DNA from: Macrostomum lignano
Taxonomy: Eukaryota
DNA: 64,000 nt
Assembly (NCBI GenBank): GCA_002269645.1
Contig: NIVC01001961.1
Location: 1 to 64,000 of the forward strand
Reading direction: 5' to 3'
Shown in pieces: positions 5,901 through 8,900 of the stretch. The first letter of the stretch is position 1, and every line of letters starts with the position of its first letter. Made by a program: the position numbers and the translations under genes. The notes beneath the pieces are model-generated. The model worked only from the letters and a program-made list of their open reading frames with translations. It made no database searches and had not been told where the DNA came from.

Positions 5901-8900
5901 GGTGAAGCTTATAGTTGGTGAAGCTTATAGTTGGTGAAGCTTATAGTTGGTGAAGCTTATAGTTGGTGAAGCTTATAGTTGATGACGTTTATAGTTGGTG
6001 AAGCTTATAGTTGGTGAAGCTTATAGTTGGTGAAGCTCAGAGTGGGTGAAGCTCAGAGTGGGTGAAGCTCAGAGTAAGCCAAGTCTTGAGTTGATTTAGT
6101 CGAGTTTGATGCAGAGAGGTCTGGGAATTCGCGAAAAATATGGGATCCGACAAGGCAGACGGCTTATCGTCAGATTTCCCAATACTCGCTAGCCGAGAGG
6201 ACGCAGCAGCCCTCCCTATTTAGCGGAAATTCTGGACCAATCTTCATTCGCTAAATCCCCAAACTCCAAGCTGTCCGAGCTGTCCTAATCCCCACTTGCA
6301 GCGTAATTATTTTTCCGTCTTTTTTTCTTCTTTTCTTGTCCATTAATGTAAGCGACTGCGTAATCATTTGGCGGCGTTGGGGGGAAGGGGCGATCGGCTC
6401 GGTGCCGCGATCAGTTTGCTGTGCCAGGACCGGCTCCCCAGGGCCCCACGCCGCCTCTGGGAGCCGGAAAGGGTTGCATAGCTAATCTGCCGGTTGGGGA
6501 TTCGGGGTAGGTAATTGGACTGGAGACCGCGGAGCCCCTGGTGCCGAGTTTGAGCAGGTTTAGGCTGAGTATGTCTCTTCTATCTATCTATCTATCTATC
6601 TATCTATCTATCTATCTATCTATCTATCTATCTATCTATCTATCTATCTATCTATCTATCTATCTATCTATCTATCTATCTATCTATCTATCTATCTATC
6701 TATCTATCTATCTATCTATCTATCTATCTATCTATCTATCTATCTATCTATCTATCTATCTATCTATCTATCTATCTATCTATCTATCTATCTATCTATC
6801 TATCTATCTATCTATCTATCTATCTATCTATCTATCTATCTATCTATCTATCTATCTATCTATCTATCTATCTATCTATCTATCTATCTATCTATCTATC
6901 TATATCTATCTATCCTGAGATAGATAGATCCTACCCACCTGAGCAAAGCAACAGAGCTACCAGTGAAGACATCGCATGCTCTGTAAATGTACCTCCCTCA
7001 CTTCCTAGTAGAGCTAATCCAGACGAGTCGCAGGGTCGGGCTGCCTGTGCTCAGGAGCTCGACACGGGGGTGGTCTGCGATCAGACATCCCCACCTGCTA
7101 CCGGCAGCATCAGTGCAGGTGCTAGCCTAGACAGTGCTCAATCACCGATCTTTATGACACCCCTCGAACGAAACTGCTGAGATGCATTCACAGTCCACAG
7201 AGGCCACAGAAACCGACACACATGCGGTCGACTCCAGCCTTGATGAGGGTCAGCCTGACCAACTCGAGCAGTCTTCGGGACCCAGCACCAACCGCACCGC
7301 CATCTACTGTGGTGATCCACAAAGGTCCCAAGAAGAATTGGAAATTGTCCTCCGTGGTTAAACAAACAGTAGTGATTGGAGATGAAACCCTGTCTCAGCC
7401 AGCAGCGGTGCACCCGGAGATCCAATTCGAAATTTTTCCTAACTTAAGAGCTGAAAACTTAGTCAAGCTACTTCGCGAACAGGCAGCCAACCCCGTGTCG
7501 AACGTCAAGAGTGTGATCCTGTTCCCATGGGGCCAGGACCTTCAAAGACAGTTTGAAGGCGTTATCGACAAGCAGCTGACCACAATCTTCAATCATTGTG
7601 GTAGAGCCTTTCCCAAAGCCAAGGTCTATACGGCCGATCAGGTAGTTGCTCCCGATGCACCTGACAACCTCCGACAAGCAGCGGAAAAAGTAAACCGCCA
7701 CCTCCGCACTCTCAACAAGAGCAACCATATTGCTTTGGCAGCAGGTAGTCTATCCTTCTGTCCCAACCATATCACAATGTCGAACGAGTCCTCTTCGAAA
7801 GCGTTCCGCATTGCATACAATAAAGTCCAAAAAAACTAGACAGGACAGAGACTGCTAGTAGCAGCTCTGTGCTCAACCTATCTAGTGTCACTCTGTCTGA
7901 AAGCGAAACTCAAGTTTTAGAAATGGGGAAAAACTTCGTGCCAGCCCCTTTACGGATAGGTTCTGAACTTCTTTTCGAGTCCGTCAGGAACTTCAAACAG
8001 CGAATCGCGCTGAACTCCCTTCTCCAGCGCCGAACCTGTGCTTTCACTCTGCACGCAACAGGACGCGCCTCAATTCCTAACATCAATCTGGATAAGTGGC
8101 AGTCACACAAAGACCTCTTTGATGCGCTGGACAAAGTCAAAATCCCAGAAGTCATTTCCAACAAACCAAATTTGCCACAGGACCTTCGACATGCACTGCA
8201 AAGTCTCCGCAACAACAAAAGTATCGTCATTAAGCCTGCCGACAAAGGCAGTAACCTGGTAGTCTTAAACCGCGAGGATTACATAGCAGAAGCCAGCAGA
8301 CAACTTTCTAATTCCAGCTTCTATAAACCGATTGATTCGGCTTCAAGAATCCAAACCGCTCCTCGAATCAAAAAAATCTTTCAAGATTTGAGAGACGAAA
8401 AGGTCATCAATAATCACCAATATTCCCAGCTGGTCCCACCTGCGGAGCCGAGGATAGGATTTTCTATCTACTTCCGAAAATTCACAAGGATCCGGAGACT
8501 TGGCCAACCCGTGGAATCCCTCCAGGCCGACCCATTGTCTCTGACTGCAACTCCGAAAGTTACATGAGTGCCAGGTTCATCGATCTCTATCTGCAGCCTA
8601 TTGCCAAGGAACAGAACTCCTTCATTAGAGACACTGATCACTTTCAAGCAGCTATTCATGACTTGACGTACGACAAAGAAGAGAGCGTCTTCCTGGTCAC
8701 AATGGATGTCGAATCCTTGTACACGAACATACCTACGGAGAAGGGGATTAAAGCTGTTAGGGACGCTTTTCAAAACTTTCCTCAACCATCAAGACCTGAC
8801 GAGAAACTACTGGAGCTCCTTGACATCAATCTGACTAAGAATGACATGGTGTTCAACGAAAAACGCTATCTGCAGGTTAAGGGCACAAGCATGGGAAAAT

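Follow-up and report, generated by a model that had tools for sequence, protein, structure and literature searches.

A probable programmed -1 ribosomal frameshift between an esterase-like ORF1 and the reverse transcriptase-endonuclease in a Penelope-like element of Macrostomum lignano and its relatives

A Penelope-like element between two microsatellites

The sequence studied is contig NIVC01001961.1 of the Macrostomum lignano assembly GCA_002269645.1, positions 1-64,000 of the forward strand; this whole stretch of 64,000 nucleotides is called the window. Two (CTAT)n arrays found by TRF bracket a copy of a Penelope-like element (PLE), with the following features.

6579..6914, no strand: (CTAT)n microsatellite, 5' flank of the insertion (TRF)
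6934..7839, plus strand: ORF1 remnant, with private extra bases at 7160 and 7277 (sequence, family contigs)
7339..7829, plus strand: SGNH/GDSL esterase-like domain at the ORF1 C-terminus (pairwise and profile homology)
7830..7836, plus strand: slippery heptamer A_AAA_AAC, in phase with ORF1 (sequence; unchanged in 4/4 runs)
7836..8451, plus strand: N-terminal region of pol in the -1 frame, with VLNLS and IKPADKG motifs and a private missing base at 8451 (sequence)
7837..7839, plus strand: TAG stop codon of ORF1, abutting the heptamer on its 3' side (sequence; 4/4 runs)
7845..7870, plus strand: predicted 11-bp hairpin with a one-base bulge, candidate stimulator (fold; stem ACAGAG-A-CTGCT/AGT/AGCAG-CTCTGT)
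8597..9094, plus strand: reverse transcriptase core (Pfam RVT_1, E 1.4e-9)
9449..9475, plus strand: C-x4-C-x2-C linker between reverse transcriptase and endonuclease, Neptune/Nematis-type (translation)
9572..9875, plus strand: GIY-YIG endonuclease carrying the CCHH motif of PLEs (motifs read; Pfam GIY-YIG, E 0.004, under the gathering cut-off)
9936..10040, no strand: AT-rich filler (sequence, TRF, family contigs)
10038..11086, no strand: (CTAT)n microsatellite, 3' flank (TRF)

The two Pfam matches and the motifs confirm the original prediction of a PLE encoding a reverse transcriptase (RT) and an endonuclease (EN). A CX2-5CxxC linker is defined as common to Neptune and Nematis in the accessible part of PMC8557442, and judged by this motif, which Nematis shares, the element is a Neptune-type, endonuclease-bearing (EN+) PLE. 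A search of 6000-11500 against Rfam, in which a hammerhead ribozyme was sought, gave no match at E<=5 in this truncated copy.

The element or part of it was contained in 20 of 24 listed sequencing runs from 8 studies, and four of these runs (X1, X2, X5 and X10, one per study) were compared with the window. Family contigs from the four runs extend beyond both ends of the window copy, which is therefore truncated. ORF1 lacks its 5' part (record 1 of X1 carries 1,050 nt more upstream), and since the family contigs continue past 9935, the copy is probably 3'-truncated as well. A 17-nt direct repeat occupies 9919-9935 and 10024-10040. The family contigs resemble 7061-7089 just upstream of 6934, and CCCACCTG follows in both cases (6934, 7090), which suggests that the full ORF1 contains an internal repeat of 156 nt (52 codons) that is cut off in the window copy. 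Loose contig ends at 8220-8251 in all four runs indicate that the organism has one or more further PLE families with which the IKPADKG-coding stretch is shared.

A weak match to a QRICH1 domain, presumably a host exon (5207-5716, plus strand, E 6e-4), adjoins the element just upstream, and hence the element may be located in a host intron. Other host exons in the window belong to an STT3 oligosaccharyltransferase (27079-27645 and 30306-30683, minus strand) and a DEAD-box helicase (34923-35312, plus strand).

The junction of ORF1 and pol

The stop-to-stop frame of ORF1 covers 7126-7839 and its terminal codons are GTC CAA AAA AAC TAG. The canonical -1 frameshift signal consists of an X_XXY_YYZ heptamer, a spacer of 5-9 nt and a stem-loop; A_AAA_AAC serves in the gag-pro junctions of MMTV and HTLV, and U_UUA_AAC in coronavirus 1a/1b. 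All the elements of such a signal that had been read from the window were found again: the heptamer lies in frame right before the ORF1 stop, the spacer (7837-7844) is 8 nt long, and the hairpin that follows folds at -17.9 kcal/mol. The -1 frame is open from 7824 to 8567, and the claim that it runs into the RT without an ATG before the VLNLS block is borne out, as its first ATG (7923) lies 16 codons past the N of that block. By chance, a canonical in-phase heptamer stands immediately before the stop at 68 of 11,298 control stops (0.6%).

Besides the junction, the window copy has three frameshifts, namely an extra base at 7160, an extra base at 7277 and a missing base at 8451. Contigs of all four runs have one base fewer at the first two positions and one more at the third, and these breaks are therefore private to the window copy. 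The suspicion that they are homopolymer deletion errors needs one correction: they do sit in short homopolymers, but only the one at 8451 is a deletion, the other two being extra bases. The window copy, truncated and with three private indels, is dead, and the frameshift signal is a property of the family that it came from.

The junction itself is bridged by contigs of X1 (6934-9064, 3 gaps), X2 (6934-8263, 2 gaps), X5 (7744-8078, 0 gaps) and X10 (7234-8194, 1 gap), and every gap is explained by the three private indels. Seven As and the TAG are preserved in all four runs, with no indel at 7829-7835 in their contigs; contigs lose rare variants, so this comparison gives the majority state only. 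It had been cautioned that an A8 instead of A7 would simply fuse the two ORFs. The alignment of family contigs refutes this for all four bridging runs and fixes the run at seven As in four independent data sets. As these runs keep A7 and TAG without the other breaks, the ORF1/pol frameshift is the sole break that the family retains. The only junction variant within the family (7859) falls in the loop of the hairpin and leaves the pol protein unchanged.

Conservation of the junction in related elements

We compared the junction with those of related elements from a metagenome scan, which was ranked on pol similarity and blind to the junction save for a few query residues. The scan confirmed 462 of 606 candidate stretches, and the counts below refer to the best 80 of these 462. 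Seventy-seven loci could be parsed (L052, L059 and L063 were dropped for want of an anchor), and 58 of the 77 have an esterase-profile match upstream of pol. The other 19 were excluded from the main counts; among them are five canonical heptamers and one relaxed heptamer. In 56 of the 58 esterase-bearing loci pol lies in the -1 frame relative to ORF1. The two same-frame cases read T TTA AAC TAA (L006, with a further indel downstream) and C TTA AAC TAG (L046). Since two overlapping ORFs are found in the window family and also in these 56 of 58 relatives, the window family is a variant and not the canonical EN+ PLE form.

When the ORF1 stop is defined by the longest ORF upstream, a canonical in-phase heptamer lies within 15 nt of the stop in 46 of the 56 frameshifted loci (directly adjacent in 34), a relaxed one in six, and no recognisable heptamer near the stop in four. 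A heptamer at this distance and in this phase is found at 311 of 11,298 control stops (2.8%), and neither wrong phase yields a heptamer in any of the 56 loci. Of the 46 canonical sites, 34 are U_UUA_AAC, three A_AAA_AAC, three A_AAU_UUC and six of other types. Clustering leaves the proportion much the same (41/48 at 90% identity, 40/46 at 70% and 27/30 at 50%); because the loci are related, p-values overstate their independence. The relatives are distant, being about 28-45% identical to the element, and over the compared region none of them exceeds 37% identity to the window pol. A GIY-YIG pattern is present in 38 of the 56, while 14 contigs end too early and four are long enough yet lack the pattern. 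These four frameshifted, esterase-bearing loci (L032, L048, L057 and L075) are possibly endonuclease-less or divergent.

Codon choice at the junction departs strongly from that elsewhere. The junction Phe-Lys is coded TTT AAA in 35 of 35 cases versus 62 of 171 inside pol, and the ORF1-terminal Leu-Asn is coded TTA AAC in 37 of 44 versus 26 of 363 elsewhere. With synonymous positions fixed in this manner, the constraint at the junction acts on the nucleotides. An ATG in the pol frame before the NLS motif occurs in 13 of the 56 relatives and is lacking in 43.

Traces of the shifted reading are also found in an independent set of proteins homologous to pol. The tripeptide FKL, which is the -1 reading of U_UUA_AAC plus the stop, occurs 17-29 residues before the NLS motif in 10 of the 124 proteins that could be anchored among the 150 best homologues (26 could not). 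The motif was noticed before testing; shuffling gives a mean of 1.06, and none of 10,000 shuffles reaches 10. One of the ten FKL proteins, P0036, seemingly has esterase-like sequence in frame. Moreover, in four homologues the esterase and the RT are fused in frame, the linkers being 21, 22, 22 and 32 residues long. The linker expected from a -1 slip has 20 residues for the window, and its median length over 31 shifted loci is 25; these natural fusions reproduce the product predicted from the shift.

In a quick tree of 71 rows, with SH-aLRT support only and no named reference elements, all the esterase-bearing rows form one group (60 rows, SH-aLRT = 100) that includes five heptamer-bearing rows without an esterase match. 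The fusions are scattered inside this group, which suggests, as far as so weak a tree allows, that fusion is the derived state. Nearest to the window, which is on a long branch, are two rows of the fused type (support 88). Outside the esterase group, L021, L036 and L077 each possess a long ORF upstream, in the same relative frame, with in-phase heptamers 30-132 nt before its stop; PLEs whose ORF1 is of another kind may also have the frameshift layout. Among viral contigs, 35 pattern matches yielded no confirmed case.

An esterase-like domain in ORF1

The C-terminus of the window ORF1 has no Pfam match on its own. Its language-model neighbours are GDSL-like, and it aligns pairwise with the ORF1 esterase of L001 (E 3e-8) and the esterase of P0078 (E 1e-8). 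In an alignment of 33 ORF1 sequences (A4), 24 members match Lipase_GDSL_2 at E<=0.1, and the best solved relative of the A4 profile is PDB 4C1B, an 'ORF1-encoded protein' (E 3e-10). These comparisons place the window ORF1, indirectly via its relatives, among homologues of the SGNH fold, which is that of the ZfL2-1 type of esterase ORF1p.

In most A4 relatives the catalytic blocks (S, G, N and H) are retained. In the window family GDS is replaced by GDE, the G of block II by N and the N of block III by Q, no catalytic His is aligned in the window ORF1, and no family variant restoring catalytic residues was found in the four runs. Because these residues are replaced, the domain is likely a catalytically dead pseudo-esterase in the window family, and their loss suggests a structural role for this part of ORF1.

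The ORF1 frames closed by an upstream stop (30 relatives) have a median length of 594 codons. No longer protein was found with the window ORF1 as query, and with A4 there were two matches. Another domain, NADAR (PF08719, E 6e-22 to 4e-7), lies upstream of the esterase in 12 of 39 relative ORF1s scanned (L003, L005, L007, L008, L009, L016, L018, L019, L020, L026, L034 and L071). NADAR is noted for brown-algal Gypsy and oyster Tx1 elements and not reported for PLEs in the available portion of PMC12477816.

RNA structure downstream of the heptamer

Over 44 nt the window hairpin has a z-score of -2.7, and three of 200 shuffles fold equally well. Longer spans are less distinctive (z = -0.6 to -1.3 over 64-124 nt from 7837; z = -2.3 over 81 nt from 7820). 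Among the relatives, the 50 nt past the heptamer fold slightly better than shuffled sequence, with a mean z of -0.69 and 9 of 52 below -2, and they also surpass six control offsets (Wilcoxon p = 0.03 to 5e-5; the loci are not independent). Almost no structure is predicted for several of the relatives, for instance L031 and L068.

Twenty junctions gave no consensus fold, and the consensus of nine equally spaced ones was a core of only three pairs, to which the window hairpin does not conform. A conserved long hairpin found no support (59.7% of cells paired, covariation not significant with 45/500 shuffles), and neither did a conserved H-type pseudoknot, for which a crude search performed at chance (4/53 at p<=0.08; window p = 0.15). 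The conserved signal is thus a heptamer with a nearby stop and variable structure; the predicted hairpin of the window is among the strongest, and this strong hairpin is specific to the window family and lies outside what is conserved. The proposed check of whether esterase-ORF1 PLEs elsewhere keep heptamer, stop and hairpin comes out positive for the heptamer (46/56) and its nearby stop, but for the hairpin conservation is weak.

Weighing other explanations of the junction

We consider a programmed -1 ribosomal frameshift joining ORF1 to the RT-endonuclease, as originally predicted, to be very probably the correct reading. It is supported by A7 in four data sets, the conserved frame and heptamer, the fixed synonymous positions and the natural fusions. 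Separate translation of pol, starting by re-initiation, leaky scanning or a non-AUG codon near the ORF1 stop as in two-ORF LINEs, has precedents: an esterase ORF1 is known from non-LTR elements with two ORFs (PMC3905857, in the part available), and a killifish Neptune is annotated in the consulted part of PMC12602865 as two non-overlapping ORFs. Thirteen of the 56 relatives do have a pol-frame ATG before the NLS, but the other 43 and the window do not, the first ATG of the latter being past VLNLS. Re-initiation, moreover, would fix neither the -1 frame (56/58) nor the synonymous positions of the heptamer, and we regard this explanation as very unlikely. Slightly less credible still is slippage at the level of RNA synthesis, in which RNA polymerase or reverse transcriptase would stutter on A7, add an A and fuse the frames in RNA. 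The window has seven As, and its three other indels lie in short homopolymers. However, since 34 of the 56 relatives use U3A3C and only three A6C, it is X_XXY_YYZ that is conserved and not a long run, and no A8 form was seen in any of the four runs, including the presumed-RNA run X2, in contigs that drop rare variants.

Splicing, by which a short intron would remove the ORF1 stop and join the frames, gains some ground from the fact that PLEs can carry introns (Figure 1 legend, PMC8557442). Against this, none of the four runs contains a joint across the junction (that X2 is RNA is only a guess), the -1 fusion already yields the natural linker length, and splicing leaves the fixed heptamer unexplained; we give it hardly any weight. 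A sequencing error or chance deletion in a single-ORF element would fit a copy with three other frameshifts, as well as the existence of natural single-ORF esterase-RT fusions, but 4/4 runs keep A7 and TAG without those three frameshifts and the same geometry recurs in 56/58 relatives, which makes it the most improbable of all, to the point of being negligible. The four explanations together retain only a small share of probability; none of them accounts for either the fixed frame or the fixed heptamer.

Comparison with known systems

Frameshifting of a PLE ORF1 has been described for endonuclease-deficient Athena elements. The window element resembles the gag-pro and gag-pol junctions of retroviruses and LTR elements in its in-phase X_XXY_YYZ heptamer, 8-nt spacer and predicted downstream stem-loop, and also in that the upstream ORF ends at the site and the -1 polymerase has no start codon of its own. 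Unlike retroviral and LTR elements, it has a GIY-YIG endonuclease, no integrase, protease or capsid was seen in it, and its ORF1 ends in an SGNH esterase domain. The PLE relatives differ from such frameshifts too, in that they conserve the heptamer and an adjacent stop and not a strong RNA stimulator.

Canonical EN+ PLEs are described as single-ORF elements in the parts consulted of PMC8557442 and PMC11167929. In the Figure 1 legend of Craig et al. 2021 (PMC8557442), a PLE ORF1 is separable by a frameshift with a pseudoknot, and the corresponding preprint legend points to the endonuclease-deficient Athena/Coprina with a coiled-coil ORF1. Like those two-ORF PLEs, the window element has an ORF1 upstream of a PLE RT and joined to it via a frameshift; unlike them, if the preprint legend names the clade meant, it is EN+ and has an esterase ORF1, and a crude search found no conserved pseudoknot at its junction. 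Esterases in Neptune-like PLEs appear in Schneider et al. 2013 (PMC3905857) and Rodriguez et al. 2017 (PMC5408684), in the portions available. In that of Schneider et al. the active-site residues are conserved, whereas the window family has lost them, and the words 'frameshift' and 'slippery' are absent from it; in that of Rodriguez et al. the single mention of 'frameshift' concerns LTR elements. The killifish Neptune annotation does not mention a frameshift in the accessible text (PMC12602865), and the available parts of PMC6431247, PMC3846280, PMC5718144, PMC7998251, PMC4700185 and 10.64898/2026.07.22.740005 contain nothing on a frameshift between ORF1 and pol in EN+ PLEs. Our search, outside of which lay most subscription journals and Repbase notes, found no published description of the slippery junction in esterase-PLEs. 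The frameshift of a PLE ORF1 (in a figure legend) and the PLE esterases are already in print, and the mechanism is classic, while a near-universal -1 signal in esterase-bearing, mostly endonuclease-positive Neptune-type elements did not turn up in the literature searched.

Proposed mechanism and implications

As most of the distant relatives carry a slippage signal at the same spot, these elements likely use a programmed frameshift. The ribosome would pause on A_AAA_AAC with AAA in its P site and AAC in its A site; by analogy with established -1 frameshifting, tRNA-Lys and tRNA-Asn would then slip in tandem and re-pair one base back, so that CUA is read next. The minority of ribosomes that slip would continue through a transframe peptide into an ORF1-RT-GIY-YIG fusion, while most would terminate at the adjacent UAG and release ORF1p. 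The pause would be caused by the hairpin 8 nt downstream and probably also by slow termination at the stop after the heptamer; the stop codon is considered because many relatives keep the heptamer and stop but little structure. Abundant ORF1 and a minority of fusion would be expected, with an excess of ORF1p over RT like that of Gag over Gag-Pol.

It is possible, although we lean against so wide a generalisation, that a large and varied branch of EN+ PLEs follows a retrovirus-style Gag/Gag-Pol strategy. In such a case an esterase-ended ORF1p of 450-900 residues (with NADAR too in one lineage) would be made in excess and form particles or membranes, the RT-endonuclease would be made only as a -1 fusion, and the trigger would mainly be a heptamer set against a stop and not a pseudoknot.

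PLEs are the sister group of telomerase, and little is known of how EN+ PLEs build their ribonucleoprotein. A conserved -1 signal would mean that many EN+ PLEs have a long, overlooked ORF1 and that their RT would be produced as a fusion at a set ratio. 'Frameshifted' PLE copies would then be intact and not broken, which bears on gene prediction and on repeat libraries. The 52 junctions with a heptamer (46 canonical and six relaxed) extend from a strong hairpin at one end to an absence of predicted structure at the other, and make up a natural panel that suits the question of how far an adjacent stop codon replaces an RNA stimulator.
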